Positions 4,665 to 54,204 of a stretch of 64,000 bases of DNA are shown here, in pieces (position 1 is the stretch's first letter; every line of letters starts with the position of its first letter). The DNA comes from a phage. The notes under the pieces are model-generated. The model was not told where the DNA came from and made no database searches. It saw nothing but the letters and a program-made list of their open reading frames with translations. The stretch lies in the sequence record PX441839.1, one strand, 5' to 3'. The position numbers were made by a program, and so were the translations under genes.

Positions 4665-4955
4665 ATGTTTGAAGTATTCGCCGGAATGTGTTTTTATGGT
4701 GCTATGGCATTGCGTCAATGTGAAGATTACACCGTTGAAGTGTATCATGATCCCTTATCTTGCGAGATCGTGGCGCAAGATTACCGACAGGATAAACGCT
4801 GGCTTAATCCTCAGTGTATCCCATCGCCGGAGGTTGAACCAATGCCAGAAGGTGAAGCCCTGGAAGGTGAGGAGATCCGCGCCGTTGTTAGCTATATGCT
4901 AGATAACTTAAACGCCGATCAGCTTGTTTCTATGTATGCAGAAACAGAAAAATAA
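4665..4955 (+). CDS. hypothetical early protein (96 aa)
   Basis: ATG at 4665 after AAAGGAAAGGG RBS, in frame with listed ORF 4506..4955. Confidence 0.45.
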   Translation: MFEVFAGMCFYGAMALRQCEDYTVEVYHDPLSCEIVAQDYRQDKRWLNPQCIPSPEVEPMPEGEALEGEEIRAVVSYMLDNLNADQLVSMYAETEK

Positions 4956-4958
4956 TTG

Positions 4959-4999
4959 TTGACGTTGGTTTATGCCGTCGCATATAATAGACGGCATAG
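4959..4999 (+). promoter_or_regulatory. sigma70-type early promoter (class II)
   Basis: TTGACG, 18 bp, TATAAT; palindrome atgccgtcg / cgacggcat around the -10. Confidence 0.55.
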
Positions 5000-5031
5000 G
5001 CAAACGAAACAAACCATAAAAGGGTTACAAA

Positions 5032-5223
5032 ATGAAATCATCTTTACTTTTTTGCACTGTAAACATCATCATTGGTAACGGTTGCGGATCTCATGAATTT
5101 ATTAAGGGCAAGCCTTACAGCCTTTCATCGCTGCAAGCTGATTTTCGTTTATTGCCAGGACAGATCCGCAAATACTTTCGCGCCCCGTATCCAAAAGGAT
5201 ATAAAACAAATTTAGCAAAATAA
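5032..5223 (+). CDS. hypothetical early protein (63 aa)
   Basis: ORF with promoter and RBS. Confidence 0.4.
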   Translation: MKSSLLFCTVNIIIGNGCGSHEFIKGKPYSLSSLQADFRLLPGQIRKYFRAPYPKGYKTNLAK

Positions 5224-5227
5224 AGTA

Positions 5228-5256
5228 TTGACAAGGGGCACAGATTACCCCATAAT
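5228..5256 (+). promoter_or_regulatory. sigma70-type early promoter (class III + leader hairpin)
   Basis: TTGACA, 17 bp with gggg..cccc, CATAAT; leader hairpin at 5267-5285. Confidence 0.55.
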
Positions 5257-5307
5257 GTAACACATAGGGCGACACAACGTCGCCCACTAACAAAAGAGAT
5301 AAACAAA

Positions 5308-5592
5308 ATGATCAAGGCAAACAACTTTTTCTTCCTGGCTAACGTAGCGGATCACATCGTGGCAGAATTTAGAAACGTGGATGCAACAGCATTTATAAAA
5401 ATGCGTCATGAAAAAGACGTTTCAACGGATCGCGTAGAAATGGAAGTTACCCGCCACGGCAAAGAGTTTAAAATCAAATATCTGATTATCGTAAATAATG
5501 CAACATTTAGCGAGGGAACCAGCGAACCGATCCCGGACAATATGATCCAGCAAGTGATCGCCGCCGTTGCTAACGGATCAATTTTACCTTAA
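5308..5592 (+). CDS. hypothetical early protein (94 aa)
   Basis: ORF with promoter and leader. Confidence 0.5.
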   Translation: MIKANNFFFLANVADHIVAEFRNVDATAFIKMRHEKDVSTDRVEMEVTRHGKEFKIKYLIIVNNATFSEGTSEPIPDNMIQQVIAAVANGSILP

Positions 5593-5599
5593 AAAGTTG

Positions 5600-5640
5600 T
5601 TGACGTTGGTTTATGTGGGGCGTATAATTCCCCACATAGA
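5600..5640 (+). promoter_or_regulatory. sigma70-type early promoter (class II)
   Basis: TTGACG, 17 bp, TATAAT; palindrome atgtggggcg / ccccacat around the -10. Confidence 0.55.
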
Positions 5641-5661
5641 CAAACGAAACGAGAGATTAAA

Positions 5662-5868
5662 ATGTACACCATGATCGCACTTGCAGTATACTTCCTTTCA
5701 TCTTGCATTTACATTATGTTGGCGCTTGCCTTCCCTGGTGAGTTGGTTTATAGTTTTATGGGCGTAGATCTTGTTTTATGGGCGGTCGCCACGCCACTGA
5801 TGATCGTTCCCGCCGTGATCATTTATTGGATTGAAGAAAAGATTACTGATTTGCTAAAAGGCTATTGA
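5662..5868 (+). CDS. small integral membrane protein (68 aa)
   Basis: ORF with two predicted hydrophobic helices. Confidence 0.45.
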   Translation: MYTMIALAVYFLSSCIYIMLALAFPGELVYSFMGVDLVLWAVATPLMIVPAVIIYWIEEKITDLLKGY

Positions 5869-5926
5869 CAAGGCAACCACAAACAAAGATAATAGCCTCA
5901 TTGAAAACAACTAGTAAGGATTTACG

Positions 5927-6079
5927 ATGTATAAGCTGTTAACCTGGGAACATGAGACAAGCCAACCGATTAGCCGTGACTTTTTCGATTTGTGCGCCGC
6001 TTACCGACTGGCAAAAGGCGGTTACTATAAAGCCCAAATCATTGATGAAAATAATGTTGTACTTTATGAGTTTAAATGA
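5927..6079 (+). CDS. small protein (50 aa), not in the ORF track
   Basis: ATG at 5927 after AAGGA RBS; followed by hairpin gcgccccgaaaggggcg at 6087-6103. Confidence 0.3.
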   Translation: MYKLLTWEHETSQPISRDFFDLCAAYRLAKGGYYKAQIIDENNVVLYEFK

Positions 6080-6133
6080 TTAACAAGCGCCCCGAAAGGG
6101 GCGATAATTACCACACAAAACAGGAGACAGTAA

Positions 6134-6376
6134 ATGAAAGTTCAAAATGTATTGATTTGTGAAGATTGCGCCTTGTACCTTAATACAGGTGAGCTTCCCG
6201 CTGATACCACACCAGAAGATGATCAGGACATCATCCACGGGGCGGAATATCTAGATATAACTTACAAATTTGGGAGTGTAGGCACTAGTTTAGGCTTTTC
6301 AATAAAACCGTGTGAATGTTGCGGATCTCGCCTGGCCGGAGATCGCTATGAATATGATAATCTTGGCTTAAAATAG
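6134..6376 (+). CDS. small zinc-ribbon protein (80 aa)
   Basis: CEDC ... CECCG Cys pairs; GGAGA RBS. Confidence 0.5.
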   Translation: MKVQNVLICEDCALYLNTGELPADTTPEDDQDIIHGAEYLDITYKFGSVGTSLGFSIKPCECCGSRLAGDRYEYDNLGLK

Positions 6377-6536
6377 TAGTTGACTACAACGAAAGAAAAG
6401 AATACTATGTATCACATGAAAGGCAAACAGCCTAAACCAACAAAGAGAGAAACAAAATGAGCGTAGTATTCTTAATTTCAGTTTTCGTAGCTATCGCCGC
6501 TTCAACCGCAATTTGTGTAAAATTAGGATGGTAAGA

Positions 6537-6932
6537 ATGGAAAGTGTAAAAGATACCCTGTTAAATGCTTTTTTGTCCGGCGCTACTGAGGCGTTATTGT
6601 TCGCAGAATCCGCAGAAGATGCAAACGGGGAGACAATCGAACATTTGAACGGTTACGAATTAAGCAATGCAAGCAAAGCACTGTTAAAACTGGAATCTGT
6701 TAAATTCTTAGATTTAGGAAACAACTTAATAGAAAAAGCTATTGACAGTAGCGGCGATTTATACGATTATACTCAAGCGGGGCGGGATTTTTGGTTTACT
6801 CGTCAAGGTCACGGCGTAGGATTCTGGGATCGGGGTCTTGGGGAAGTTGGGGACCAGCTAACAGAACTTTCAAAATGTTTCGGTGAGCGCTGGATCTCTT
6901 TGAATGAAAATAATTTTGTAGAGGTTGAATGA
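6537..6932 (+). CDS. hypothetical protein (about 131 aa; start uncertain)
   Basis: In frame with listed ORF 6513..6932; ATG at 6537 has an AGGA RBS. Confidence 0.45.
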   Translation: MESVKDTLLNAFLSGATEALLFAESAEDANGETIEHLNGYELSNASKALLKLESVKFLDLGNNLIEKAIDSSGDLYDYTQAGRDFWFTRQGHGVGFWDRGLGEVGDQLTELSKCFGERWISLNENNFVEVE

Positions 6933-7276
6933 TGGCTGAAAAATTCTCAATAACTCAAAAGACAATTTACACCATTAAAAGCAAACACGGCGTTATTGAG
7001 TGTGAAGGGATAGCAGGACTAGAAAAGCACGTAGAGGAAACATTAGGCGCTTTTGTTGACAACATGCACGGCAACCATACAGGACTAAGATCAAAAGATC
7101 GGATCAATGATTATGATTACCTGTTAGAGAATCGCCAGGACTTAGAAACAATTTTCGCCCTTATGGATGCCGTTAAGGATCTGAAAAATCCACCATCGCC
7201 GGATCACGATTGTGATGATTATTATTGTAACCGTTGCGGATCTGGATCGGCCATTGAATACGTAGGAAATAATTAA
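6929..7276 (+). CDS. hypothetical protein with C-terminal Cys cluster (115 aa)
   Basis: Start overlaps the upstream stop; CDDYYCNRCG motif. Confidence 0.5.
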   Translation: MMAEKFSITQKTIYTIKSKHGVIECEGIAGLEKHVEETLGAFVDNMHGNHTGLRSKDRINDYDYLLENRQDLETIFALMDAVKDLKNPPSPDHDCDDYYCNRCGSGSAIEYVGNN

Positions 7277-7278
7277 CA

Positions 7279-7500
7279 ATGCAAACTAAAAACCTGTTAG
7301 GAAAATCTGATTTTTTAAGAGCGCTCGCGCCTGGCGAATCGGCGGTATGGAACGTGCAAGGGAAAGATGTAGAAAAGGAAATGCGCCTGTTTACTGCTAC
7401 CGCTTGCCGCCTGGCAGTGACTATCACACAAAGGGCCGCTTTAATTGTTTTGGCTGATAACTTGCCCTTACATTGTGTAATCGTGACTAAGGTTAAGTGA
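7279..7500 (+). CDS. hypothetical protein (73 aa)
   Basis: Abuts the upstream gene. Confidence 0.45.
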   Translation: MQTKNLLGKSDFLRALAPGESAVWNVQGKDVEKEMRLFTATACRLAVTITQRAALIVLADNLPLHCVIVTKVK

Positions 7501-7511
7501 ATGACAATAAC

Positions 7512-7555
7512 AGGCCCAAATAGTGAACGTATGGCGCTATAAGGGCCTTTTTGGT
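7512..7555 (+). terminator. rho-independent terminator
   Basis: aggccc ... gggcct stem followed by ttttt. Confidence 0.45.
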
Positions 7556-7646
7556 AAGAGGTAAGGCAATCAGGCACTAAAGCCTAAAAATTCAATACAG
7601 ACCCTTACAGGGCCTCACATCAAAAATAAAAATCATCTTAAAAGTG

Positions 7647-7675
7647 TTGACTCTTAAATTACTTTTCGGTATCTT
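7647..7675 (+). promoter_or_regulatory. putative sigma70-type promoter with variant leader hairpin
   Basis: TTGACT, 17 bp, TATCTT; leader variant gggcggcaatggtgccaaggccc at 7684-7710. Confidence 0.4.
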
Positions 7676-7728
7676 TTACCACGTAGGGCGGCAATGGTGC
7701 CAAGGCCCACAACTTAGGAGCCAGTAAG

Positions 7729-7983
7729 ATGACAACTTTCAAACACGTAATTTCTGTAAATACTGCTATCCTTGGCGGCGTGGAACGTGATAAAGCTTTT
7801 TATTCAAAGTATATCGGTGATTCATGTTTTAACTACTGGGGCATGAAGATGTCAGAAGTTCGCCGGATACTGGGATTCGGTAATACTGGCCGTAAAGTTA
7901 TTTCGGGCGATATCGCCAGAACTTTAAACGTAGGCTATGACATCGCCAAGAAAATTCTTTCCGATGTAGAAAAATCACTCTAA
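7729..7983 (+). CDS. hypothetical protein (84 aa)
   Basis: ORF with RBS; hairpin ggccccgaaaggggcc follows at 7991-8006. Confidence 0.5.
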   Translation: MTTFKHVISVNTAILGGVERDKAFYSKYIGDSCFNYWGMKMSEVRRILGFGNTGRKVISGDIARTLNVGYDIAKKILSDVEKSL

Positions 7984-8184
7984 TCATTAAGGCCCCGAAA
8001 GGGGCCAACATGCAAAGGGAATAGTAGTGATTTACTTTAAAAATGTTGAAACGGGCCGATTCTACCGCTTTAAAAATAGCCGTGTTTTGTTCCACATTGC
8101 TGGATTGTGGCGCATCAGCGACACATACAGACCCGCCGATCTTACGGGTTATCCTTTCATAGCTGTAAATATGGGACCATCATT

Positions 8185-8376
8185 ATGACCACAGAAAGCG
8201 ACATCAGACAAGCCCTGGCCGCTATGCGTTATCACCATAGATTAAAGAGCAGTGATCCAGGTTACGCCGGATCAACCTTTGAGAGGGATACCATAGAGGG
8301 GATCGCCACACTTAAGAACCTTATGGACCGTATGAGGGACAGCAACAGATCCGACTTTTTAGGGGAGGAGATTTAA
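8185..8376 (+). CDS. hypothetical protein (about 63 aa; start uncertain)
   Basis: Internal ATG of listed ORF 8107..8376. Confidence 0.35.
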   Translation: MTTESDIRQALAAMRYHHRLKSSDPGYAGSTFERDTIEGIATLKNLMDRMRDSNRSDFLGEEI

Positions 8377-8404
8377 TTTATCGGACCATAACCACTGGAT
8401 GTAA

Positions 8405-8440
8405 AAACAGGTTGATTTGGTCGGCCTGTTTTGTTATCTT
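8405..8440 (+). terminator. rho-independent terminator
   Basis: aacagg ... cctgtt stem followed by ttttgtt. Confidence 0.45.
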
Positions 8441-8795
8441 ATTTAGACGGCGGGCACCTGGGGACAGGGGGAGACAAACACCGGACCTGCCTGTTATTCA
8501 GGTTGACTTACCGGACCTGGGCCACGTTCTGCAAATGAAAATGGTTATCATTCCCAATAAAATCAAATACATACTTTCAAACCGTTGTCAAATTTATTTC
8601 ATACTACTGTATAAATATACATGGCCCTAAAACGCCCTGAATCGCGTTTTAAGCCGTTTTACCCTGAATCCTTACCCTACATCATTAAAAAATAGATCTC
8701 GCGAAATCGGACTTTCGCACTTTTTGCCCTTGCAAACATGAAAATTTTATGCTAGATGAGTTGGTTGGAATTGACAAAACTTTACAATCCCCCTA

Positions 8796-8824
8796 TTGAC
8801 GGCAAGCCCAGAAAAGCCTATTAT
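8796..8824 (+). promoter_or_regulatory. sigma70-type promoter with variant leader hairpin
   Basis: TTGACG, 17 bp, TATTAT, then cacatagggcggcaatggtgcgacggccc. Confidence 0.45.
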
Positions 8825-8876
8825 TTATCACATAGGGCGGCAATGGTGCGACGGCCCACAAAGAGGAGACCGTAAA

Positions 8877-9020
8877 ATGAACCTGACTAACTTTAACCGC
8901 TACTACATCCGCGACGAACAAGCTAACGCTTTCGGTTATGACCGCACCGCTGAAGCCGCTGAAAAGCAACATAAAATTTTCATCCGTTGGATTGCAGACT
9001 ATAAAAAGGCCCGCGCTTAA
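8877..9020 (+). CDS. small protein (47 aa)
   Basis: ATG at 8877 after AAGAGGAG RBS; the listed start at 8796 lies inside the promoter. Confidence 0.4.
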   Translation: MNLTNFNRYYIRDEQANAFGYDRTAEAAEKQHKIFIRWIADYKKARA

Positions 9021-9265
9021 TGTATCGCCTTTTTAAAATCAACCTTCCATTGTGGGCCGCTTTAGCGGTCCCCATTGCCTTTTCTGGTGATGCCTTAAAC
9101 AATTGGATTCTTTCCGCTGTACTTGGACCGGATCAAATAGTCGCAACATGCTTAAATGTTTTAAGTGCTACACTGGCAACTTCCCGCCTTGCCTACCGTG
9201 GCAAATCAATAAACCGTTATGATCTGGCGCTATCATTACCCGCTCTAATAACCTGCCTTAACTAA
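9020..9265 (+). CDS. hypothetical hydrophobic protein (81 aa)
   Basis: Start overlaps the upstream stop; last gene of the plus-strand early block. Confidence 0.4.
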   Translation: MYRLFKINLPLWAALAVPIAFSGDALNNWILSAVLGPDQIVATCLNVLSATLATSRLAYRGKSINRYDLALSLPALITCLN

Positions 9266-9272
9266 AAGACAC

Positions 9273-9299
9273 CCGCCCCACCCGGCGGGCTTTTCTTTT
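9273..9299 (+). terminator. rho-independent terminator ending the plus-strand early block
   Basis: cccgcc-ccaccc-ggcggg stem followed by cttttctttt. Confidence 0.55.
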
Positions 9300-9597
9300 G
9301 TCCCAAACGTGGCAAGCCAGAACATCCCGATCCGGTATCGGTCCTACTCCCCCAGCACATCCCCTTATCACCTCACCTGTTAAAATCAACTCATAATTTT
9401 ATTCACTTTAAGATGCATAATTGAATAAACGGCCCCAGGGTATAACGGCAAGGGTAAACAATTGCGACCAGTGTGGAGCGTTACAGCGAGTTTTAGACCC
9501 TATTGACTTCTATTTGCAAACGTGTATCAAGCCATAACTAACTAAAATCACCTTTTATTTACATAACTTGACACTACCTATTCACTTATCTGCATAT

Positions 9598-9616
9598 GAG
9601 AATGATTATCATTAAC
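9598..9616. repeat. near-palindromic AT-rich box gagAATGATTATCATTaac (copy 1 of 3-5)
   Basis: Further copies at 10005-10018 and 10201-10214, degenerate copies at 8540-8552 and 9927-9939; resembles the Fur-box consensus GATAATGATAATCATTATC. Confidence 0.45.
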
Positions 9617-9675
9617 TAAATCATACACTTACCACATACAAGTAAACAAATCAATAATAAATAAAAATTGCCTTT

Positions 9676-9860
9676 CACGTTCCCACGGATCAAGGGAGGG
9701 CGCGCCGGAGGCGCGACCTATAGAAAACAGGTAACGAATCAACCCCCGTTGCTAACTCGCAACGGTTTTTGCTTACGTTCCCACGGTCAAGGGATGACCG
9801 CTTATTAGCTACGCTAACCGCTAACATCCTTTAACCGCTTTAACCTGTTTTCTATAGGTC
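9676..9860 (+). repeat. composite structured element: direct repeats, 16-bp inverted repeat and internal terminator
   Basis: Direct repeats (c/t)acgttcccacgg(a)tcaaggga at 9676-9697 and 9774-9794; inverted repeat cctatagaaaacaggt (9717-9732) / acctgttttctatagg (9843-9858); internal hairpin ccgttgc-taactc-gcaacgg + ttttt at 9745-9770. Confidence 0.45.
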
Positions 9861-10512
9861 TTTTTTATGTGTAAATTCCATAAAGTCAAGGGCTTTTATC
9901 AAGTAATTTTCATAATTTTACTGAATGAGAATGCTTATCTTTTGCATATGTAGGCGTAAATTAGCGTAAACAGGCGGACCTGTAAGGACCTGTTAGGGCC
10001 TATAGGATGATTATCATTGCGTATAAAGTAATCAATTAGGGGGTAGTAATGCCTACTTTTGCCTTATTTTGCCTGACCAGAAACGGTCTTCTCTGTCAAC
10101 CAAAAGATAAATTTTTAGCACAAAATGTAAGTGGCCCAAATGAGAACTATTCTCAAAGTAGAGTAATTCCCAAATGTTAATGAGTCTCACCTCAATTGTG
10201 GAATGATTATCATTAAGTCCAGTGTTGGCGGGACCTGGAGCAGGACGGGTAAGCCAGTGCGTATAAGGTATTTTATGTTAAATGGTCAAAAAGTGGGCGT
10301 AGGCACAGTCTCACCGATGAGTCAAGTAATAAACTGTAAATGTGGGACAAAAGCCCGTAATTGTTGGGGAAAGAATCAAACATTTTCGAAGGTAGGGGCG
10401 GCTACCGCCAGCGACAACGGGCAAGCGGGGAAAGGGTAAGTTATTGTTTTTACTGGATATTTGGGAAAGATCGGCCCCATATGTGAGGGGTAACTCAGGG
10501 GTGCCTGGCACC

Positions 10513-11030
10513 TATATCCAAACTCTGGTGAAATATATCCAAACTCTGACCAAAAATACAAGGCTCTCTTAGCCGAAGACAAAGGAAAGATAAATGGGTA
10601 TCTCCAGCTAAACAGGGGAGACTCTTTAGGCACTAACCTTGTGGGATATTTTGGGGAGAAATGCTCTGGAGACCCTACCGTACTTGACGATCTAAAATTT
10701 TGGGGGGAGGGCACTACAGGATATTTTCTGGTCTGACTCCATAAGACCCCCTACCCACTTTTGGACATCTAAAAATTTGGCAGGGAGGTATTTCTGATAT
10801 TTATGACTGAGTGATATTTGAACAGAGGGGACTCTTTAGACACCCACTTGTTTTGGGGAGAAGGTATAATATTATTTGGGAGGGGGTATAACAGAATTGA
10901 TAACAGATTTGGAAACAGGAAGGGACAGGGTTGACTCTTTAGGTATAGAAGGCAAAACTGATGGGTTGACAGATTGACCAACTGACGGGACTCTTTAGGC
11001 AAGAAAGCAGGAGAGCCTCTTTAGGCCCTC
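10513..11030. repeat. iteron-like cluster of degenerate short repeats
   Basis: tatatccaaactctg twice (10513-10527, 10534-10548); gactctttagg five times (10620, 10830, 10933, 10989, 11015 variant); ttttggggaga-type G-runs at least five times. Confidence 0.45.
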
Positions 11031-13558: not shown

Positions 13559-13780
13559 ACTCCCGACATTTACTCGACGAAAAGGACCACAAGGTCCTTT
13601 TTCTTGAACACTACATGATCTTGATGCTGCTTGCCAAGATGAACACGGACGCGAAGTTTATGATTCCCGTGATAACTTGAAACACCTTGTCAAACTTTCG
13701 AGGTAAGTTCTTCACATTGTTGAAGCTCCATGCTGTAAAGAACATAGCTCCAATTAAAAGGACAACTTTAATGATATCAA

Positions 13781-13969
13781 TCACTTCTCAAGCTCCTTAA
13801 CATAGTCCAGAAACATTTCCCAATTACCCTGGCAGAACTGGTACTTGTACCTGTTCACCGGAGTACCCATAATCTCCTCAACATACGCTACAGAGGAATC
13901 TGGGTTGTGGGCCATATATACCTTCTCAAATATTTCCCGAAGTTTAGCCTTATCTTTCATGGTCGTCAA
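13781..13969 (-). CDS. hypothetical protein (62 aa)
   Basis: Six-frame ORF. Confidence 0.4.
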   Translation of the reverse strand: MTTMKDKAKLREIFEKVYMAHNPDSSVAYVEEIMGTPVNRYKYQFCQGNWEMFLDYVKELEK

Positions 13970-15582: not shown

Positions 15583-15861
15583 TTACCATTTAATTTTTGA
15601 ACCTCTTTTGAGGACACGTAGCTGATTCTTTCTCTGCTCAGGTGCCTCGTCAATCTTCCTGTCCCACTCCAAATCAACGTAGATATCTTCCTTGATCTTC
15701 TTGTCGATGTAATTGACGATTGGAATTACCACGTCTGGGTGGATCATAAATAGCGTAAATACACCGTCCCTTTCGTAACCATCAGGGAAGAACTCTTCCC
15801 TATACTCCCTTACAAGTCTGGTATATATCAACTCCCCATAGACTGAAATTTTTTCTTCCAT
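15583..15861 (-). CDS. hypothetical protein (92 aa)
   Basis: Six-frame ORF. Confidence 0.5.
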   Translation of the reverse strand: MEEKISVYGELIYTRLVREYREEFFPDGYERDGVFTLFMIHPDVVIPIVNYIDKKIKEDIYVDLEWDRKIDEAPEQRKNQLRVLKRGSKIKW

Positions 15862-16022
15862 TTGTTCACCAATTTCGGATATGTATATATTGAGATCATC
15901 GAGGGGACTACTGCCAACAACCCAACCAATACTGCACCGTAGTAATTATCATGGTCCAGTAAGTTATGGCTACATACCCCTGCAATTGTGGCAAAGAACA
16001 AGATTATCACTGCACGATACAT
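15828..16022 (-). CDS. small membrane protein (about 64 aa)
   Basis: Two hydrophobic helices; internal ATG chosen to abut the upstream stop. Confidence 0.4.
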   Translation of the reverse strand: MYRAVIILFFATIAGVCSHNLLDHDNYYGAVLVGLLAVVPSMISIYTYPKLVNKWKKKFQSMGS

Positions 16023-16023
16023 T

Positions 16024-16302
16024 TTATTCTCCTCTCCATGAAACTTCCACCCACGATTCGTCATCGTCTTCGATCACCTTGATCTTGTACCCCATATCCA
16101 TCAACGCTTCTTTTACCGAAGGGTAGTGAACATATCCAACCCACCATTGTTGACTTTCCCCAATCGCGTCCTCAATATTCCGCATCATCTCAAGGAGTTC
16201 CATCTTCTCGTGGTGATACATCGCACATTGCACATCATCTTCCATTTGCAACCTACGTGCTTCATCTGCCGTAATTAGGCGTAACTTACCGTGAACACTC
16301 AT
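16024..16302 (-). CDS. hypothetical protein (92 aa)
   Basis: ATG at 16302 preceded by AAGGAGG RBS and a promoter. Confidence 0.5.
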   Translation of the reverse strand: MSVHGKLRLITADEARRLQMEDDVQCAMYHHEKMELLEMMRNIEDAIGESQQWWVGYVHYPSVKEALMDMGYKIKVIEDDDESWVEVSWRGE

Positions 16303-19400: not shown

Positions 19401-19766
19401 TCACCATAGGAAGTTGACACCATAAGAAATCAAGAGGATCAACATTGTAAAGCTGTATGCCAGGCTGTACAGAACTGTACCTACAGTTGAGTCTGGACTA
19501 CGTTGAGTAGCCATCACCTTAATCCAATGGTACACTGCACTTGACCAGTGGAGTACAACGATTGATGTCCCCAGTACAAAAGGTGCGGCACTATACAAAC
19601 TGTAGCTTAACCACATACCAAAAGCGCAGAACAGCGTCAGGATGAAAATTGCACCCGGTTTCATGTGTTTCCCAAACCCAGGTCCTGACTTACCTCCTAA
19701 CAGACAGGTTATGACACCAAGAAAAGACAGAGAGTTTAGAACCAAGAGTACATAAAATTGCCACAT
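19401..19766 (-). CDS. integral membrane protein (121 aa)
   Basis: Three to four hydrophobic helices. Confidence 0.5.
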   Translation of the reverse strand: MWQFYVLLVLNSLSFLGVITCLLGGKSGPGFGKHMKPGAIFILTLFCAFGMWLSYSLYSAAPFVLGTSIVVLHWSSAVYHWIKVMATQRSPDSTVGTVLYSLAYSFTMLILLISYGVNFLW

Positions 19767-20164
19767 TATAATTTCTCCTCATAAATATCAGTGATGAGGT
19801 CAGAGACCTCGAAAGACTCTAACTCTTCGACGTTGATCAGGCGCTTCAAGCGCTCAATAACGAAGTCCTTCTTCACAAACACATCGGACAAGTGAGCTAT
19901 GTCCTGCTTTCCACGAAGTCCACTCACCAACTGCTTGTACCGAATGTGTTCACTATACTCTTCCCTGTTCATGGTTGTCAACCGTTTATTGTCGGAAACT
20001 TTCAAAAATACCTTTCCACTGTCCCAGTCGAACCCATTGCTAATTCCGTCAACGCCTATGGTTGGTAATGCCCCGATTGTAATGTGTCCAACCTCAACAG
20101 GGATCACCACGTCGGCATCTGGATCACATTGCCACAGTAAATCTATAAGTTCACTTACCTTCAT
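19766..20164 (-). CDS. hypothetical protein (132 aa)
   Basis: Six-frame ORF abutting neighbours. Confidence 0.5.
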   Translation of the reverse strand: MKVSELIDLLWQCDPDADVVIPVEVGHITIGALPTIGVDGISNGFDWDSGKVFLKVSDNKRLTTMNREEYSEHIRYKQLVSGLRGKQDIAHLSDVFVKKDFVIERLKRLINVEELESFEVSDLITDIYEEKL

Positions 20165-20468
20165 TCAATTTCTCCAAAACAAAACCAACCAGTAGGTCAA
20201 TGATGGCGATAAATGCTGCTACAGTTCCCACTGCAATCAGGAACGGCAGTAGTGTAAGTATGGGTCCTGACATGAACCCTGCAAATGCCCCGATAAAAGA
20301 TCCAACTATCGCCATTTCGTATTTTCGAGACTTAGCTATCCCTTTTGTTACTCGGTGCAGAACAAATATCCAAATAACGATACCCATTGTTAACCACACA
20401 GGTGGGTACATTGCGTAGCTCTCTGCCCAAACACTGGCGACTTTTAAAAATTCCATCATATCACTCAC
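20151..20468 (-). CDS. integral membrane protein (105 aa)
   Basis: Multiple hydrophobic helices. Confidence 0.5.
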   Translation of the reverse strand: MSDMMEFLKVASVWAESYAMYPPVWLTMGIVIWIFVLHRVTKGIAKSRKYEMAIVGSFIGAFAGFMSGPILTLLPFLIAVGTVAAFIAIIDLLVGFVLEKLNEGK

Positions 20469-23065: not shown

Positions 23066-23088
23066 AAAGGCCACCCGAAGGTGGCCTA
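23066..23088 (-). terminator. rho-independent terminator after the methyltransferase gene
   Basis: ggccaccttcgggtggcc followed by a T-run on the minus strand. Confidence 0.55.
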
Positions 23089-23091
23089 ATG

Positions 23092-23607
23092 TTAACTTTT
23101 TGGTTTTGCCCAGTAAAACGGCGATTCAAGCTCCAGTCTTCCTTTTGGGTCCCAGATAAAGTAGCAATACTCAGCACCATCTGTTTTTCCATCATCTGTA
23201 AAAGATGGACGCTTAGAGAGGGTGATTAAGTGGTCAACTGGGTATTCTCCCCAGAAGTCGAACCGCTTCATGCTTCCAAGAAACCCTGCTCGAAGGAGCA
23301 TTATAACAACATCTGCATCTTTGTGGGCCTTCTCTACAAACTCCTGAGCCAAAGAATACGGAGGGTTTGTTATGATACAATCCACACGATTATACTCTGT
23401 GGTGAGATAATCCACACCTTCCCTGATCTCTCCCCACGCAGATCCTATCGGCATGTGGTTATAAAAACGCCCAGAGGCACGACACGGTTCCATGTATGTC
23501 CAATCTTTTCTGATAGGTACGATACTCAAGAGTGCATCAACTGCCCACTCAGGGGTCTCATACAAATCAAAAGCTTTTCGTTCCCCTTTTGGCTTCAATG
23601 CGGCCAT
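23092..23607 (-). CDS. DNA methyltransferase, probably N6-adenine (NPPY motif)
   Basis: DCIITNPPYS motif IV; 171 aa. Confidence 0.7.
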   Translation of the reverse strand: MAALKPKGERKAFDLYETPEWAVDALLSIVPIRKDWTYMEPCRASGRFYNHMPIGSAWGEIREGVDYLTTEYNRVDCIITNPPYSLAQEFVEKAHKDADVVIMLLRAGFLGSMKRFDFWGEYPVDHLITLSKRPSFTDDGKTDGAEYCYFIWDPKGRLELESPFYWAKPKS

Positions 23608-24467
23608 TACACCTTCTCCTTCAAACGCCGCACAATTTCTTGACGGATATACTCAGGACTATCATGGATAGACAGATAATTTATATCAAAAGCTTTTGCA
23701 ATCTCAATAAGCTCACTGGGCGTATACTCATCAAAATCTTTTGTGCTTAGTTTACCAAGAGAAAAGGTCTTCTTCTTTCCGTTATCCAAAGTTATGTCGA
23801 ACTCATCTCCTTTGTCAATCTCTTGAGTTGGGAATGGGAAAATTATGCTATCCGAAGCTTTAACTTCCTTTTTGCCATCCCCTAGTCGCGATCTGGCATC
23901 CTCTGCATTGAGATATACCTCACCCGCATGATCAAACAGTCGGCTCAACTCCTCGTCTGTCAGAATTTCAGAGTACAAATCATGAAATTGATTCTTGAAC
24001 TCCCGTGCATAAAAATCAACACGGGTTTTGATATTCGCAGAATCACCGCCCAGAGATAGTTGTGCATTGTGGAACATCAGATAGCAACCATCCTCAATCA
24101 CCCGCTCATGACCACTAAGGAAAATATTCACCGCTGCACTGGCAACCTCACCCACAGCAACAGTTTTCACCTTGGCCTTGCTTGCCTTGATCGCAGAGGT
24201 GTACATACTTGCGATAGAAAGGTATCCACCAGGGGAGGTGATATAAATTGTAATTGTGTCATGCTCACCTGCGTTACGGATCAGGTCCACAGGTTCAATA
24301 TGATTGGCTGGGTGGTCCCCAAGCTCTGTTAAGTGAATGCGCCAATCGTGGCGCTCCTTGGAACGAGACCAAATCATCTTTACATTTTCCGGCAGTAACT
24401 GATCACCCATTATCAAACCCCCTTCTCTAAGTCTTCCCGAATCCGCTGTGCGTTTTGAAGAATCCAC
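23607..24467 (-). CDS. ClpP-like serine protease (S14 family) with N- and C-terminal extensions
   Basis: ITSPGG ... GEVASAA ... MFHNAQ resembles the ClpP INSPGG / GxAAS / MIHQP core; 286 aa. Confidence 0.5.
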   Translation of the reverse strand: MDSSKRTADSGRLREGGLIMGDQLLPENVKMIWSRSKERHDWRIHLTELGDHPANHIEPVDLIRNAGEHDTITIYITSPGGYLSIASMYTSAIKASKAKVKTVAVGEVASAAVNIFLSGHERVIEDGCYLMFHNAQLSLGGDSANIKTRVDFYAREFKNQFHDLYSEILTDEELSRLFDHAGEVYLNAEDARSRLGDGKKEVKASDSIIFPFPTQEIDKGDEFDITLDNGKKKTFSLGKLSTKDFDEYTPSELIEIAKAFDINYLSIHDSPEYIRQEIVRRLKEKV

Positions 24468-24997
24468 TCAATAACCATTGAACGATCAGAATCCACAATC
24501 ACTTCATGATGTCTTTTAAACATATCTAATACTCGACGGGCCTCAGCAGCGTAACGTGCGGCGCGGTCGAAGAACAAGAATTCCTCTTTGTCCGTATCTG
24601 TAATAGGGCAAAGGTCACTGGGTACATCAATAGCCACCAAGTGATCAACAAGTTCTTGCCGAGTAGTAAACATAAGATCAACCTCTTGGTCAATCGGCAG
24701 AGAAAGATCCATCAATTTGAAAAACCAACCCTTGTCTTCCTTTTGTTGTCTGCGGATACTTTTAATTTCAGACTTAATATGGCAGAACTTTATGTTTGCA
24801 AGGAGTTCAAGCTGGTCAGAATCAACTACCCCAGAGTTCTTCAATTCCATTAGCTTACGATGCTCAACTGTTGCATAAATACCTTGATCCACAAACTCCC
24901 CCTTAGAATCCGACAACGTAGTGAAACTTTCCATCAATCTCTTTGCTTTCATAGATAACGTAGTACCACCCATCTTTTCCCCCTGATACCCGATCAC
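24413..24997 (-). CDS. hypothetical protein (194 aa; start uncertain)
   Basis: Six-frame ORF. Confidence 0.45.
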   Translation of the reverse strand: MIGYQGEKMGGTTLSMKAKRLMESFTTLSDSKGEFVDQGIYATVEHRKLMELKNSGVVDSDQLELLANIKFCHIKSEIKSIRRQQKEDKGWFFKLMDLSLPIDQEVDLMFTTRQELVDHLVAIDVPSDLCPITDTDKEEFLFFDRAARYAAEARRVLDMFKRHHEVIVDSDRSMVIEWILQNAQRIREDLEKGV

Positions 24998-25819: not shown

Positions 25820-26230
25820 TTAAGGATATTCTTTTCTTCGAAGCTCGAAGTGGGGACCGTCATAGAACCGTTCATCTTTCCAGTCCCCGTTTTCATTCCA
25901 GTCTCCACCCCACCGAATCGCCACACCAAGCTCATCTGCACACTTGAACATTGTCTCAGATAATTCGTTGAACTTTCCCTTATCATCCCAAGGAATTTTT
26001 CCACCAATCAGAGGTGCAATGTCCACAGCATGACCTGTCAGGTGGCGACTGTTCATGGTCTTGCTTACACCCTTCCGAACGTTCTCTGCCTGTTTCTCTC
26101 GTGAACGGACACCTTCAATGACCGTGAAGTCAAACTTGGTTTTGGTAATAGCAAGTTTTACCACCTTCACAAGATCAGGGTGTACGCCATTCAAACGGTC
26201 AAGACTTCGTTTTCCTAATACAAATGCCAT
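25820..26230 (-). CDS. endolysin, L-alanyl-D-glutamate peptidase (peptidase M15 family)
   Basis: 136 aa; SRHLTGHAVDIAP ... WGGDWNENGDW matches the T5-type endolysin fold. Confidence 0.7.
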   Translation of the reverse strand: MAFVLGKRSLDRLNGVHPDLVKVVKLAITKTKFDFTVIEGVRSREKQAENVRKGVSKTMNSRHLTGHAVDIAPLIGGKIPWDDKGKFNELSETMFKCADELGVAIRWGGDWNENGDWKDERFYDGPHFELRRKEYP

Positions 26231-26232
26231 TT

Positions 26233-26691
26233 TTACTCCTTTGGTCCAAAGAAAGACTCATTTAATTGAGTCAGTGCCGGAGACAAGGTCAAAGATGCTT
26301 CTGCAATCCGAGCCTCGTACTCCAAATCTTTTAAATAACGATCAAGATCGTCAGCACTTAACTTACCGTAGTGTTCCTTAAAGGTGTTCTTGATCGCATC
26401 CTTGAACTCTTCCCCCGCCAGGACTTGAAGACCATCTTCCAGTTTTTCCAAGTCCTTCTTGTTCTGTTTTGTAGGTCGATGAATTCCCTTCAAGAAGTCA
26501 ATTGTTTCAATTGCCGCCCGAATCTGTGCATCGATATTAATTTTAGCCAGCAGATCCCCAATACGGTCAAGAGTTTCTTCTTTCAGGTTGGTAGTATTAC
26601 AGTTCGAAGTCATCAATCTCAATCTCCTCTGGTTTATTAAAAGTATCACAAAGCTCAGTATACCCGCCAATATATTCCCTGTCACCATCAA
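26233..26691 (-). CDS. possible holin-like membrane protein (152 aa)
   Basis: N-terminal transmembrane segment then charged coiled region; adjacent to endolysin. Start overlaps the upstream gene, so uncertain. Confidence 0.35.
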   Translation of the reverse strand: MMVTGNILAGILSFVILLINQRRLRLMTSNCNTTNLKEETLDRIGDLLAKINIDAQIRAAIETIDFLKGIHRPTKQNKKDLEKLEDGLQVLAGEEFKDAIKNTFKEHYGKLSADDLDRYLKDLEYEARIAEASLTLSPALTQLNESFFGPKE

Positions 26692-26875
26692 ATTTGAAGA
26701 TTTGAGGAACTGTACGAGGGAATTTGCCAGTGTCGTTCTCTACCCAGTTGTTCATTTCATTGAAATCATCACCGCTTGATACATCACGATACTGATACCC
26801 TAAGCCCTTTGATTCGAGAAGGTCTTTAGCACGTACACAATACGGACAATTCTCTTTTCCAAAAATAACGTACAT
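26597..26875 (-). CDS. glutaredoxin (Grx1/NrdC-like)
   Basis: CPYC active site and TVPQIF ... GGY motif. Confidence 0.8.
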   Translation of the reverse strand: MYVIFGKENCPYCVRAKDLLESKGLGYQYRDVSSGDDFNEMNNWVENDTGKFPRTVPQIFKFDGDREYIGGYTELCDTFNKPEEIEIDDFEL

Positions 26876-28527: not shown

Positions 28528-28617
28528 TACTTTACTTCTCCTCTTCTCTCGTCAACTGGAATTAATTGTACTCAAAGGTCTGATTACTGTCAACACAATA
28601 TTCATACATTTGAGAAT

Positions 28618-28641
28618 TAAAAACCGCCCCGAAGGGCGGCT
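28618..28641 (-). terminator. hairpin / terminator between nrdA and nrdB
   Basis: accgcccttcggggcggt followed by a T-run on the minus strand. Confidence 0.5.
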
Positions 28642-28648
28642 TGTTACA

Positions 28649-40935: not shown

Positions 40936-41154
40936 TCACTCAAAGTATTTTTTAGATGGGCAAGAACCACCATATGATTTTTCAACAAATTCGGTATGGC
41001 GTCCGTTACTGTACACACAGACTTTGTGGTTTCCATCACGGTATTCGTCTTCCAGTGGAAGAGTGTTACCAGCATGAGCATCAGAAGATACAAACAGGAT
41101 GCACATAACGACGATTCCCGTAGCAACACCAAACAAGTAATTACGAATTTTCAT
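40936..41154 (-). CDS. small secreted protein with signal peptide (72 aa)
   Basis: N-terminal hydrophobic signal ending in AHA. Confidence 0.45.
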   Translation of the reverse strand: MKIRNYLFGVATGIVVMCILFVSSDAHAGNTLPLEDEYRDGNHKVCVYSNGRHTEFVEKSYGGSCPSKKYFE

Positions 41155-42955: not shown

Positions 42956-43429
42956 TCAACGATCTTCGTAAACTTTCTTAGCTTCATCTCTCCGCAAGCT
43001 GTTACGGGAATCCCTCAATGCCTCCTTTTTCTTCTGCTCATCCTTCATACGGGCACTCACTATACTTCGAACGGTGTAACCGACAAGCTTTTCCTCTGTC
43101 CCATTCATCCAGTCGAGATCACCAACAAATATGAAGCTATCATCCCACCAATGTTGAATCCAAGTGTATTTCCCAGTTACAGGGTCGTACAAGGTGAAGT
43201 CGGTATAGCAACGACTATCTTCTTCAATCTTAACCTGGTCTTCATCACCCTGTTTGCAGTAAAAACCATCATGGATCTCGATACTACCACTCTTCACCAA
43301 TTTCACAATCTTTTTTGTAGGCTCCTTTATCTGTAACCAATCGTGGAACCATGCCATCCCACAAAACAAGCTGAACAATACAAAAACGAAAACCAGAAAC
43401 GGATCAGACATTATCATTCTCCTCTGCAA
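42956..43429 (-). CDS. membrane-anchored protein (157 aa)
   Basis: N-terminal transmembrane helix. Confidence 0.5.
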   Translation of the reverse strand: MQRRMIMSDPFLVFVFVLFSLFCGMAWFHDWLQIKEPTKKIVKLVKSGSIEIHDGFYCKQGDEDQVKIEEDSRCYTDFTLYDPVTGKYTWIQHWWDDSFIFVGDLDWMNGTEEKLVGYTVRSIVSARMKDEQKKKEALRDSRNSLRRDEAKKVYEDR

Positions 43430-52138: not shown

Positions 52139-52173
52139 TCTTAATACATAGCCCGTAAGGAATTGCGGGATTG

Positions 52174-52249
52174 CCGATTTAGCTCAGTTGGTAGAGCGCT
52201 TCACTTGTAATGATGATGTCGCAGGTTCGAGTCCTGCAATCGGCACCAG
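52174..52249 (+). tRNA. tRNA-Thr (anticodon UGU)
   Basis: Manual cloverleaf: acceptor gccgatt/aatcggc, D-arm gctc-agttggta-gagc, T-arm gcagg-ttcgagt-cctgc, CCA encoded; one U-U mismatch in the anticodon stem. Confidence 0.7.
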
Positions 52250-52254
52250 ATAAG

Positions 52255-52328
52255 GCCCAATAGCTCACTGGTGAGAGCCAACCCCTCATAAGGGTTAGGG
52301 CGGGGATCGTAACCCCGGTGGGCCACCA
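52255..52328 (+). tRNA. tRNA-Met (anticodon CAU; initiator, elongator or Ile-lysidine not distinguished)
   Basis: Acceptor ggcccaa/gtgggcc, anticodon arm aaccc-ctcataa-gggtt, CCA encoded. Confidence 0.75.
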
Positions 52329-52347
52329 ACCAAAGAGAGAATTTAGC

Positions 52348-52426
52348 GCGGGTGTATCTCATCCGTCTTCTAAACGGACGTTAACCGAGTAATTGGAGTA
52401 TGGGGGTTCGAATCCCTCCACCCGCG
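52348..52426 (+). tRNA. atypical tRNA-like gene with anticodon-type hairpin UCU (Arg?)
   Basis: Canonical T-arm ggggg-ttcgaat-ccctc and acceptor gcgggtg/cacccgc, but no D-arm, a 23-nt extra segment, no CCA, and the acceptor extends to a perfect 16-bp stem (52339-52354 / 52419-52434). Confidence 0.4.
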
Positions 52427-52450
52427 CTAAATTCTTTTGAGGTGTAAAAA

Positions 52451-52966
52451 TTGCTAAACTTGAAAAATCAAAATATAGATAAAGGCACGGGATATTTATA
52501 CGTGTACGATCCAAGTCACCCAATGGCAAATAAGTCTGGAAAGGTTTATGTTCACAGGTATGTTGCAGAGACGGGGTTTGGTATAAAACTAACACCTGAC
52601 CTGATAGTTCACCACAAGGATGAGAATAAGCTAAACAACGAGCTAACAAATCTCGAAGTTATGACTTATTCTGAACATGCCCGTCACCACCACGGGGCGG
52701 ATTTTGTAGAATGTGTATGCAAGACCTGTGGCAATGTAACTTTGAGGAGGCCCTCGGAAGTTGTATCATTTTGTTCACACAAGTGCTCAACAACATTCAG
52801 AAGGAAATTTGAAATCTCTCCTCAAGAGTTGCAGGATTTGGTTTGTAACTACCCAGTTAGTGTTATTGCAAAGATGTTTGGGGTTAGTGATACAGCAATA
52901 CACAAGAAATGTAAAACCCTAGGGATTAAAAAGATGCCGAAAGGATTCTTTTTAAGACTCCCTTGA
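52451..52966 (+). CDS. HNH homing endonuclease
   Basis: YVHRYVAE ... IVHHKDENKLNNELTNLEVMTYSEHARHH is a classic HNH motif; C-terminal Cys cluster and HTH-like region. Confidence 0.7.
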   Translation: MLNLKNQNIDKGTGYLYVYDPSHPMANKSGKVYVHRYVAETGFGIKLTPDLIVHHKDENKLNNELTNLEVMTYSEHARHHHGADFVECVCKTCGNVTLRRPSEVVSFCSHKCSTTFRRKFEISPQELQDLVCNYPVSVIAKMFGVSDTAIHKKCKTLGIKKMPKGFFLRLP

Positions 52967-52998
52967 CATAGGTAATTGATCCTGATAAGATAATTACA

Positions 52999-53397
52999 TT
53001 GTTTCATTTCGGGATCGACAATATGGCAAAAGCTGAGATCGTAACCCGTAAGCGTGGACGGCCTTCGAAAGAAGAAAGCACAGCCATTGCTACTGAAAAG
53101 GCAATTCTTGAATATCGCCTTAAAGTGGCGATGTTATTACCTACCGCTGTTGATACCCTTAAAGGTCTGTTAACGTCAGGCTCTGAAAAAGTTAAAGAGG
53201 GTACTGCAAAATTCCTGATCAATGAGGCTAAAGAGGTGTTTAACATCTACGTCGCAGAAGATAATCAGGACAGTGAAGCAGGTGGTACAGTATCTGCAAA
53301 CTCACAGACCCACGCTGGATCGTCTGATGAGATTAAAAACATTATGCCTCTTACTACGGAAATCCGTGAGTACAAGATGGCAGAAGGTGAAGATTAA
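52999..53397 (+). CDS. hypothetical protein with AT-hook-like RKRGRPSK (about 125-132 aa)
   Basis: Six-frame ORF; terminator follows. Confidence 0.45.
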   Translation: MFHFGIDNMAKAEIVTRKRGRPSKEESTAIATEKAILEYRLKVAMLLPTAVDTLKGLLTSGSEKVKEGTAKFLINEAKEVFNIYVAEDNQDSEAGGTVSANSQTHAGSSDEIKNIMPLTTEIREYKMAEGED

Positions 53398-53428
53398 GAC
53401 CCTTCGGGGTCTTTGAGTTTTCTTTTGA
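53398..53428 (+). terminator. rho-independent terminator
   Basis: gaccc-ttcg-gggtc followed by tttgagttttctttt. Confidence 0.5.
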
Positions 53429-53457
53429 CGATTATTTTCGTACAAAAGAGAATTTAA

Positions 53458-53544
53458 GCCAGGTTATACCGTAGGGGTAGCGGAGGAGACTGTAAATCTC
53501 TGGTCATTGCGACTCGGGTGGTTCGACGCCATCACCTGGCACCA
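53458..53544 (+). tRNA. tRNA-Tyr (anticodon GUA), type II
   Basis: Acceptor gccaggt/acctggc, anticodon arm ggaga-ctgtaaa-tctct, long variable arm, CCA encoded. Confidence 0.7.
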
Positions 53545-53549
53545 AATAT

Positions 53550-53639
53550 GGAGAGTTGGCAGAGCGGCTGAATGCACCTGACTTGAAATCAGGCGACCGT
53601 TAACTCGGTCCGTGGGTTCAAATCCTACGCTCTCCGCCA
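53550..53639 (+). tRNA. tRNA-Ser (anticodon UGA), type II
   Basis: Tracks E. coli tRNA-Ser: ggagagt-tg-gcagagcggctgaatgc ... cctga-cttgaaa-tcagg ... gtggg-ttcaaat-cctac ... gctctcc-g-cca. Confidence 0.85.
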
Positions 53640-53720
53640 AATATCGCCCCTTATATAAAAGAACACCTGCGCGGCTGGAAAAACCCACTCAACAGTTCTT
53701 GAAAAGGGGCAACAATTTAC

Positions 53721-53798
53721 GGATCATTAGCTACAATTGGTTAGAGCGGCTCACTGTTAATGAGACGGTTCGTGGTTCAAGTCCACGATGATCCGCCA
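53721..53798 (+). tRNA. tRNA-Asn (anticodon GUU)
   Basis: Acceptor ggatcat/atgatcc, anticodon loop ctgttaa, T-arm cgtgg-ttcaagt-ccacg, CCA encoded. Confidence 0.8.
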
Positions 53799-53805
53799 AA
53801 CAATA

Positions 53806-53950
53806 GAAGGGTAACTTAAAGGCGGGTGTCCTGCCACTGGCCTCCAAAACCAGTCGTAAGGGGTTAGATTCCTCACTCTTCTGCCAAGTCGGGGTGTGCG
53901 CCAAATAAGAGCGGGTTAGCAACTGTGTTGTAGATTAGTCTACCACCCCA
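53806..53950 (+). ncRNA. degenerate tRNA-like sequences / possible small stable RNAs within the tRNA cluster
   Basis: Hairpins actgg-cctccaaaa-ccagt and gtaga-ttag-tctac plus tRNA-like termini (agaaggg ... ctcttct-g-cca), but no canonical cloverleaf. Confidence 0.3.
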
Positions 53951-53960
53951 CACAATAAGA

Positions 53961-54036
53961 AGTCCTATAGTTTCAGCGGTTAAAATACTCGCCTGTCACG
54001 CGAGAGTCACGGGTTCGAATCCCGTTAGGACTGCCA
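53961..54036 (+). tRNA. tRNA-Asp (anticodon GUC)
   Basis: Acceptor agtccta/taggact, anticodon arm ctcgc-ctgtcac-gcgag, T-arm acggg-ttcgaat-cccgt, CCA encoded. Confidence 0.8.
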
Positions 54037-54043
54037 TTTCTGA

Positions 54044-54119: not shown

Positions 54120-54124
54120 AATAC

Positions 54125-54201: not shown

Positions 54202-54204
54202 AAT

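Follow-up and report, generated by a model that had tools for sequence, protein, structure and literature searches.

The closest described lysis systems are those of Certrevirus, rV5 and PVP-SE1, in which overlapping Rz/Rz1 genes lie beside the large terminase gene, no classic cassette is present and the holin is hard to identify (PMC7344957, Buttimer et al. 2020). The T5-like peptidase was described there as CB7_190 and phiTE_147 (PMC7344957). In a PVP-SE1-like Salmonella phage, the genes upstream of the endolysin have no membrane segment and the spanin is located far away (PMC11358711). The dispersed layout is already known from these published phages, and its classic precedent is T4, whose genes e, t and pseT.3/pseT.2 lie apart from one another (Kongari et al. 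2018, PMC6139136).

The stretch of DNA analysed here (the window) covers 64 kb of the roughly 141-kb genome of a Vequintavirinae myophage. It aligns collinearly with Salmonella phage SSBI34 (MZ520832.1, 141 kb, Vequintavirinae), at 96–98% identity over most of its length, and the remainder of the genome was inferred from this relative. Between about 12 kb and 47 kb, coding is on the minus strand, with genes for nucleotide metabolism and replication and numerous small ORFs. From 47.4 kb on, coding is on the plus strand and includes NAD/PRPP salvage genes, a ten-tRNA cluster, the spanins, the terminase and the head genes. In our reading, the phage probably has a dispersed, T4-style lysis system, with the endolysin in one block, the spanins distant from it and the holin elsewhere.

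Several features are shared with Pectobacterium phage CB7. The glutaredoxin gene, a small gene designated here as X (homologue CB7_191) and the endolysin gene CB7_190 are collinear with the window, the endolysins being 60% identical. In both phages, the Rz/Rz1 genes overlap stop to start by the large terminase gene, and there is no classic cassette or identified holin. CB7 differs in having PhoH after the endolysin, where a DprA-like gene is found in the window, and the window contains an extra 174-aa ORF between the o-spanin and the large terminase gene. The likeness to T4 consists of unlinked endolysin, holin and spanin genes (PMC6139136), whereas the T4 endolysin gpe is a lysozyme and the window enzyme an M15 peptidase; T4 has a known holin (T) and known antiholins (RI and RIII), while the window has no recognised holin. 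As in the lambda S-R-Rz/Rz1 system, a holin, an endolysin and a two-component spanin are all expected, but the genes of the window are non-contiguous, the spanins have a separated and not an embedded architecture, and the gene before the endolysin encodes a predicted soluble protein.

The endolysin and spanin loci

The endolysin locus comprises the following features:

25820–26230, minus strand: endolysin of 136 aa, a predicted soluble zinc L-Ala-D-Glu peptidase of the M15 (VanY/T5-type) family, from Pfam, PHROG and PDB matches
26233–26613, minus strand: gene X, 126 aa, predicted acidic, soluble and four-helix, phrog_12288, defined by its start, its homologues and an AlphaFold2 model
26614–26691, minus strand: spurious 5' extension of the longest-ORF call, an alternative frame of the 3' end of the glutaredoxin gene
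26597–26875, minus strand: glutaredoxin gene (Pfam PF00462, 3.7e-13), the conserved upstream neighbour of X by synteny

The 25820–26230 product matched Peptidase_M15_4 in Pfam (PF13539, 40.4 bits against a cut-off of 25) and the endolysin family phrog_465 in PHROGs (E=2e-61). It aligned end to end with the solved L-Ala-D-Glu peptidases 23RI, ChiX of Serratia (5OPZ), T5 (2MXZ) and 8Q2G, with E-values of about 1e-27 to 1e-28 (1e-27 for the T5 endolysin 2MXZ). The motifs SRHLTGHAVD and DGPHF were preserved in the PDB alignments, and H63-x6-D70 and D124-G-P-H127 aligned with the equivalent motifs in 23RI and ChiX, reproducing the H-x6-D ... D-x2-H pattern. From what is known of the family, H63, D70, D124 and H127 presumably act as zinc ligands and catalytic residues. 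No hydrophobic segment was detected in a Kyte-Doolittle scan of the protein (GRAVY -0.64), and neither a signal peptide nor a signal-anchor-release domain was found in it. Given the family matches and the absence of a hydrophobic segment, the enzyme is predicted to be a canonical cytoplasmic endolysin, which would need a membrane lesion to reach the wall.

The nearest relatives of the enzyme are found in Edwardsiella siphophage eiAU (67% identity) and not in Certrevirus (60%), and in being closer to eiAU than to CB7 (60%) it departs again from the CB7 pattern. With the T5 endolysin and ChiX it shares the M15 fold family, a size of 136–137 aa and the same metal-binding motifs. The T5 endolysin gene adjoins its holin gene, and ChiX, a bacterial enzyme associated with secretion, acts together with the holin-like ChiW, whereas no adjacent membrane partner is present in the window. 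The ribosome-binding site of the endolysin gene (AAGGAG) sits in the 3' end of gene X.

In every genomic context read, the gene order was nrdA and nrdB, then small ORFs, the glutaredoxin gene, X and a muralytic enzyme, usually followed by PhoH, and both the order and the adjacency of X to the endolysin persisted down to 26% identity in X. The enzyme that follows X spans four unrelated families among the relatives:

M15 / phrog_465: the window, CB7 and E. coli phage A7_1
GH108 with PG_binding_3 / phrog_315: CR3, CR8 and two metagenomic contigs
GH19 / phrog_181: three contigs
phrog_90: another contig

Because the position after X holds M15, GH108, GH19 or phrog_90 endolysins, the slot can be regarded as the endolysin locus of the phage, and the gene contexts support its assignment as the predicted endolysin locus of the lineage. 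The distribution of families across these contexts shows repeated non-orthologous replacement at the slot. The presence of a fixed X before a swappable endolysin slot is a minor new point.

The spanin locus lies on the opposite strand and comprises the following features:

55240–55608, plus strand: i-spanin, 122 aa, with an N-terminal membrane segment at about residues 11–29 (phrog_4297 Rz-like, 5.6e-18; hydrophobicity scan)
55608–55928, plus strand: o-spanin, a 106-aa lipoprotein (phrog_1267 Rz-like, 2.5e-21; lipobox)
55928–56452, plus strand: 174-aa ORF, phrog_6409, between the spanins and the large terminase gene, with no function assigned by its family
56560–58044, plus strand: large terminase subunit, heading the packaging/structural module (from the ORF list and the annotation of the collinear SSBI34 gene)

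Beyond its single N-terminal membrane segment, the i-spanin is charged, with a presumably helical periplasmic domain, and contains no cysteine, and its gene is preceded by a GGAG ribosome-binding site. The o-spanin begins with the signal MKKRFLGVILASVIIMG followed by C18-S19, in which the lipobox is I-M-G-C18 and the +2 residue is Ser (non-Asp); two periplasmic cysteines, C90 and C101, are placed 11 residues apart. The i-spanin stop and the o-spanin start overlap as TAATG at 55606–55610, with the i-spanin gene first and the o-spanin gene not embedded in it, which defines a separated architecture. Homologues of the o-spanin carry Rz-like spanin or o-spanin labels in phiTE, GEC_vB_MG and other Vequintavirinae records. 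The membrane topology, lipoprotein signal, gene order and periplasmic cysteines thus predicted are those of a two-component spanin, with a type II inner-membrane i-spanin and an outer-membrane o-spanin lipoprotein whose cysteines would permit homotypic disulfides. A 0+2 cysteine pattern is the commonest in the spanin census (PMC6139136), and T4 PseT.3/PseT.2, compared here by architecture and not by homology, likewise are separated spanins with 0+2 cysteines and an 11-residue spacing (PMC6139136).

About 630 bp separate the end of the pair from the large terminase gene downstream (56560). The intervening 174-aa ORF is coupled to the o-spanin gene through a further TAATG overlap, is missing from SSBI34 and showed no membrane segment in the scan. 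Its closest relatives are in jumbo Erwinia phages, at no more than 37% identity, and as far as can be told it falls outside the lysis set.

These results bear out part of an earlier note on the window, which had placed the endolysin in the minus-strand block at 25.8–26.7 kb and a spanin pair about 29 kb away on the plus strand, beside the structural module. The endolysin assignment is confirmed by the Pfam, phrog_465 and PDB matches. The spanin assignment, for which the note had proposed a topology prediction, is confirmed by the PHROG matches together with the N-terminal membrane segment of the i-spanin and the lipoprotein signal of the o-spanin, and the position just upstream of the large terminase gene agrees with the stated neighbourhood.

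Putative transcription signals at the two loci

The endolysin gene is located within a tight run of genes, nrdB-grx-X-endolysin-DprA-like-ClpP-like, in which glutaredoxin and X overlap by 17 nt, X and the endolysin are separated by 2 nt, and the endolysin and the DprA-like gene by 10 nt. A consensus scan returned the following sites:

28565–28642, minus strand: terminator-like hairpin (28642–28621) followed by a sigma-70-like promoter (28593–28565, 11/12), between nrdA and nrdB
23068–23087, minus strand: strong terminator-like hairpin with a T run, the putative end of the nrdB-to-ClpP-like unit
54488–54544, plus strand: terminator-like hairpin (54488–54510) followed by a promoter-like site (54516–54544), after the tRNA cluster and ahead of the spanin/terminase unit

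The first of these would be the putative start of a transcription unit containing the endolysin gene. Promoter and terminator matches at the endolysin and spanin loci are at background frequency, with site counts in the endolysin region equal to or below the shuffled-sequence expectation.

A difference in timing or regulation between the endolysin and the spanins, as suggested in the earlier note, is plausible from their layout, and the placement of these consensus matches would fit it. A soluble endolysin and spanins are both inert until the holin triggers, and it is the holin that sets lysis timing. Because both are inert until then, separate expression of the endolysin and the spanins would by itself be without consequence for lysis timing. 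A search of the literature for Vequintavirinae transcriptomics that time the lysis genes returned nothing usable.

The search for a holin and the alternatives to a dispersed system

All coding-strand ORFs of the window and of the rest of SSBI34 were scanned for hydrophobic segments, and the candidates were compared with Pfam and PHROGs. The small membrane ORFs profiled in the window were 20151–20468, 19401–19766, 15828–16064, 13611–13784, 5662–5868, 2674–2985, 42956–43429 and 40936–41154. Across the window and the rest of SSBI34, none of the small membrane proteins matched a described holin family in Pfam or PHROGs, the matches being to generic "membrane protein" families or families of unknown function. 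SSBI34 carries no holin annotation. In the window scan, no small membrane protein was found beside the endolysin or the spanins, which are 29 kb apart and on opposite strands, and a contiguous holin-endolysin-spanin cassette is absent from the window and from the rest of SSBI34.

In the window, some candidates stand out by topology alone: three membrane segments were found in the products of 20151–20468 and 19401–19766 and two in that of 15828–16064; a tblastn search with the 105-aa protein with three membrane segments returned 5 records, none labelled as holin. In SSBI34, three membrane proteins are encoded between tail-fibre genes at 72978–74066, and two of the three gave tblastn matches in 222 and 374 Vequintavirinae records, with no holin label among the rows sampled. 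In T4, gene t adjoins gene 38, and the position of this trio recalls that arrangement.

A further candidate pair lies at 107116–107864 in SSBI34. Here, 107343–107864 encodes a SleB-like Hydrolase_2 protein of 173 aa (9.5e-23; phrog_938 endolysin) with a typical Sec signal (MKKRITAILLACTLSLSTAPALA), and the stop of this gene overlaps a 76-aa ORF that is not annotated and whose product has two membrane segments. The two genes are the positional equivalent of CB7_83/CB7_82. The authors of the CB7 study proposed CB7_83 and CB7_82 as a hydrolase and a class II holin (CB7_82), respectively, with the CR3_087 homologue implicated in lysis and CB7_83 toxic in E. coli; CR9 is an exception and has no CB7_82-type protein (PMC7344957).

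This pair could be the primary lysis pair of the phage, which counts against the dispersed scheme. The corresponding explanation, in which the SleB-like hydrolase and the overlapping two-segment, pinholin-like protein effect lysis and the M15 enzyme is auxiliary or redundant, draws on the Sec signal, the overlapping genes and the CB7 precedent. Against it, the two-segment protein matched itself alone in tblastn and gave a weak PHROG match to a "membrane protein" family, CR9 does without such a protein, and the locus, which lies outside the window, was observed in SSBI34. In addition, four bona fide endolysin families behind X would be hard to explain unless an important muralytic function resided there. 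We therefore regard this explanation as unlikely and retain the T4-style dispersed system, with the M15 enzyme as endolysin, as the preferred reading.

The product of gene X was considered in two further explanations. Its predicted pI is 5.0, and the AlphaFold2 model consists of four helices (pLDDT 93). A word-indexed homologue search returned SSBI34 only; the family emerged when 1.84 billion representative proteins were searched exhaustively, which gave 15 members of 117–139 aa. A fold search with the model gave nothing at E <= 0.001 in the PDB and, among viral models, members of its own family only. X is predicted to belong to a family of soluble, all-helical proteins and is not a holin.

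One explanation takes X to be a lysis accessory factor, such as a cytoplasmic partner or regulator of the endolysin, whose position reflects function and not backbone synteny; in phages without a recognisable holin, it would be a new cytoplasmic lysis factor, for example a component of endolysin release or timing. The adjacency to the endolysin in every context read, even at 26% identity in X, the 2-nt gap and the endolysin ribosome-binding site inside X are consistent with such a role. The pairing of X with four structurally unrelated endolysins, however, argues against a specific protein-protein partnership, and no fold or family match points to a function. The upstream glutaredoxin gene and, mostly, the downstream PhoH gene are equally conserved, so X may belong to a backbone that flanks a recombination-prone slot. 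Both the accessory role and the new lysis factor are accordingly held to be quite improbable. Alternatively, X may do no more than flank a recombination hotspot for endolysin exchange.

The other explanation concerns the longest-ORF call at this position, 26233–26691, which the earlier note had named as a possible holin. This call gives a protein of 152 aa from a TTG start and ends with a stop 2 nt before the endolysin start. Its sole hydrophobic stretch (residues 1–19, Kyte-Doolittle 2.33) lies inside the first 26 codons, and through this 5' extension the call overlaps the glutaredoxin gene by 95 nt. No Shine-Dalgarno motif was found before TTG 26691 or ATG 26688, whereas GAGGAG is present 9 nt upstream of ATG 26613, the start that is also used in the SSBI34 annotation. 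The true product is probably the 126-aa protein from ATG 26613, without a membrane segment.

Comparison with relatives likewise speaks against the extension. The X homologues in CR3, CR8, CB7 and E. coli phage A7_1 are 137 aa long, start just past the glutaredoxin stop and open with polar residues (MTALAENIVVSPEE, for example). The frame matching the extension carries a stop codon in CR3 and CB7, and its translation there is a similar pseudo-hydrophobic string (WLILSLKKRSLKL), because the conserved glutaredoxin tail is being read out of frame. The single substitution relative to SSBI34 within the extension is at 26675, a third codon position in the glutaredoxin frame and a second position in that of the extension. 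The phrog_12288 profile alignment begins at residue 40 of the 152-aa call, and in the 14 aligned relatives of X, neither an N-terminal extension nor a hydrophobic segment was found.

With regard to holin properties, 26233–26691 has the size (126–152 aa) and the endolysin adjacency (2 nt) of a holin, and its product has no transmembrane domain. Endolysin adjacency and small size are necessary for a holin in many phages and insufficient alone. No Pfam match above the cut-off was obtained, and PHROGs gave only phrog_12288, a family with no assigned function. The candidate was rejected as a holin because its hydrophobic extension is non-conserved, lacks a ribosome-binding site and meets a stop codon in CR3 and CB7. 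A class III-like holin with a single membrane segment at its N-terminus, paired with the M15 enzyme so that only the spanins would be displaced, is therefore highly improbable: the strongly hydrophobic first 19 residues of the longest ORF, its usual holin position directly upstream of the endolysin and a frame that is also open in SSBI34 (uninformative, since SSBI34 is 98% identical at the locus) are set against the 95-nt glutaredoxin overlap without a Shine-Dalgarno motif, the closed frame and later starts in the homologues, the 14 non-hydrophobic relatives and the absence of a holin family match.

The holin call of the earlier note is consequently withdrawn, the membrane segment being confined to the unsupported extension; the topology check it had called for gave no membrane segment in the 126-aa product or in the 14 relatives. 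The note would have been overturned by a non-holin at this position and a canonical cassette elsewhere. The former was found, and a cassette was found neither in the window nor in SSBI34.

Dispersed lysis genes and their significance

The reading that we favour, the T4-style dispersed lysis system, can be outlined as follows. The soluble M15 endopeptidase produced from the minus-strand nucleotide-metabolism block presumably accumulates harmlessly in the cytoplasm, and the separated spanin pair from the plus-strand terminase/structural block presumably assembles in the envelope, where intact peptidoglycan would hold it in check. The holin that would set lysis timing is not 26233–26691, would be adjacent to neither locus and would not be recognisable by homology; it is most likely one of the small membrane proteins encoded at other places in the genome. 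No holin has been positively identified, and to that extent the scheme is incomplete.

The split of the lysis genes described in the earlier note stands as far as the endolysin and the spanins are concerned, which occupy distant, oppositely oriented blocks, and fails in its holin assignment. Because no recognisable holin or cassette was found, the lysis genes are even more scattered than that note had described.

The weight of these findings for basic biology is small, since dispersal in T4 is textbook knowledge and the exact layout has been published for Certrevirus, rV5 and PVP-SE1. The locus illustrates how a longest-ORF rule gave a false membrane segment from an alternative frame of the glutaredoxin gene, and such artefacts can seed wrong holin annotations. 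For a widely used group of biocontrol phages, the analysis provides leads in the search for the holin, namely X and the endolysin slot, the SleB-like gene with its two-segment ORF, and the trio of membrane proteins in the tail-fibre region.

Small membrane proteins as holin leads

Three sets of small membrane proteins were considered as holin leads, one within the window and two in Salmonella phage SSBI34 (MZ520832.1), in the stretch beyond it (L003).

20151–20468, minus strand: phrog_11979 ("membrane protein"), 105 aa, three membrane segments
SSBI34 107116–107346 (L003 35116–35346), beyond the window, minus strand: 76-aa ORF that lacks an annotation and encodes two membrane segments
SSBI34 72978–74066 (L003 978–2066), beyond the window, plus strand: run of three adjacent small membrane proteins, 112, 153 and 90 aa in length (phrog_5345, phrog_7451 and phrog_1322)

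The 105-aa protein exhibits 77% identity to its SSBI34 counterpart, with the neighbouring DNA at ~96%, and its relatives were found in only 5 phage records. It could be the product of a rapidly evolving gene with an envelope-related role, whether as a holin, in exclusion or otherwise. The 76-aa ORF shares 4 nt with the stop of a gene encoding a SleB-like cell-wall hydrolase with a signal peptide, and it occupies the same position as CB7_82, the class II holin candidate of Pectobacterium phage CB7 (PMC7344957). The membrane-protein trio is flanked by tail-fibre genes. Of its members, the first and third were queried by tblastn, which placed the 112-aa protein in 222 Vequintavirinae records and the 90-aa protein in 374. 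On the analogy of T4, where gene t adjoins gene 38, the three proteins are late-module holin/antiholin candidates.

Spanin block and neighbouring regions

The spanin block (window 54577–56460) represents a mosaic patch relative to SSBI34, with ~75% nucleotide identity where alignable, compared with 96–98% on either flank. Its first part, 54577–55361, showed no alignment to SSBI34 at all, and the o-spanin shares just 79% protein identity with its counterpart. A tRNA cluster and a further ORF were identified around the spanin genes:

52173–54361, plus strand: ten tRNA genes (Thr, Met, Tyr, Ser, Asn, Asp, Ile, Pro, Gln, Gly)
52451–52966: HNH-endonuclease-like ORF interrupting the tRNA cluster
52999–53397: 132-aa ORF, also interrupting the cluster
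54488–54510: strong terminator-like hairpin closing the cluster
55928–56452, plus strand: 174-aa ORF, phrog_6409 (function unknown), separating the spanin pair from the large terminase gene

The 174-aa ORF is joined to the o-spanin gene through a TAATG overlap and lacks a counterpart in SSBI34; its closest relatives (≤37% identity) belong to jumbo phages of Erwinia and Serratia rather than to Vequintavirinae. Another divergent stretch, 4951–10842, located around the switch from plus- to minus-strand coding, exhibits 81–87% identity to SSBI34 with unaligned gaps, markedly below the remainder of the window.

ClpP-like ORFs

ORF calling yielded two minus-strand ORFs:

23607–24467, minus strand: 286-aa ClpP-like ORF
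24413–24997, minus strand: 194-aa ORF

A one-base difference from SSBI34 at 24417 separates them, and the SSBI34 annotation has a single 448-aa "ClpP" CDS in their place. The same annotation notes a length of 278 aa for phiTE ClpP; therefore, the SSBI34 fusion may reflect an indel or a sequencing error.

The endolysin slot

The order glutaredoxin, 126-aa soluble protein (phrog_12288; window 26233–26613, minus strand), muralytic enzyme is constant in the window and in loci L004–L007, L010–L014 and L016, which encode relatives of the soluble protein. Since four unrelated endolysin families (M15, GH108+PG_binding_3, GH19 and phrog_90) occupy the slot after this protein in different relatives, the arrangement indicates that the endolysin has repeatedly been swapped in place.
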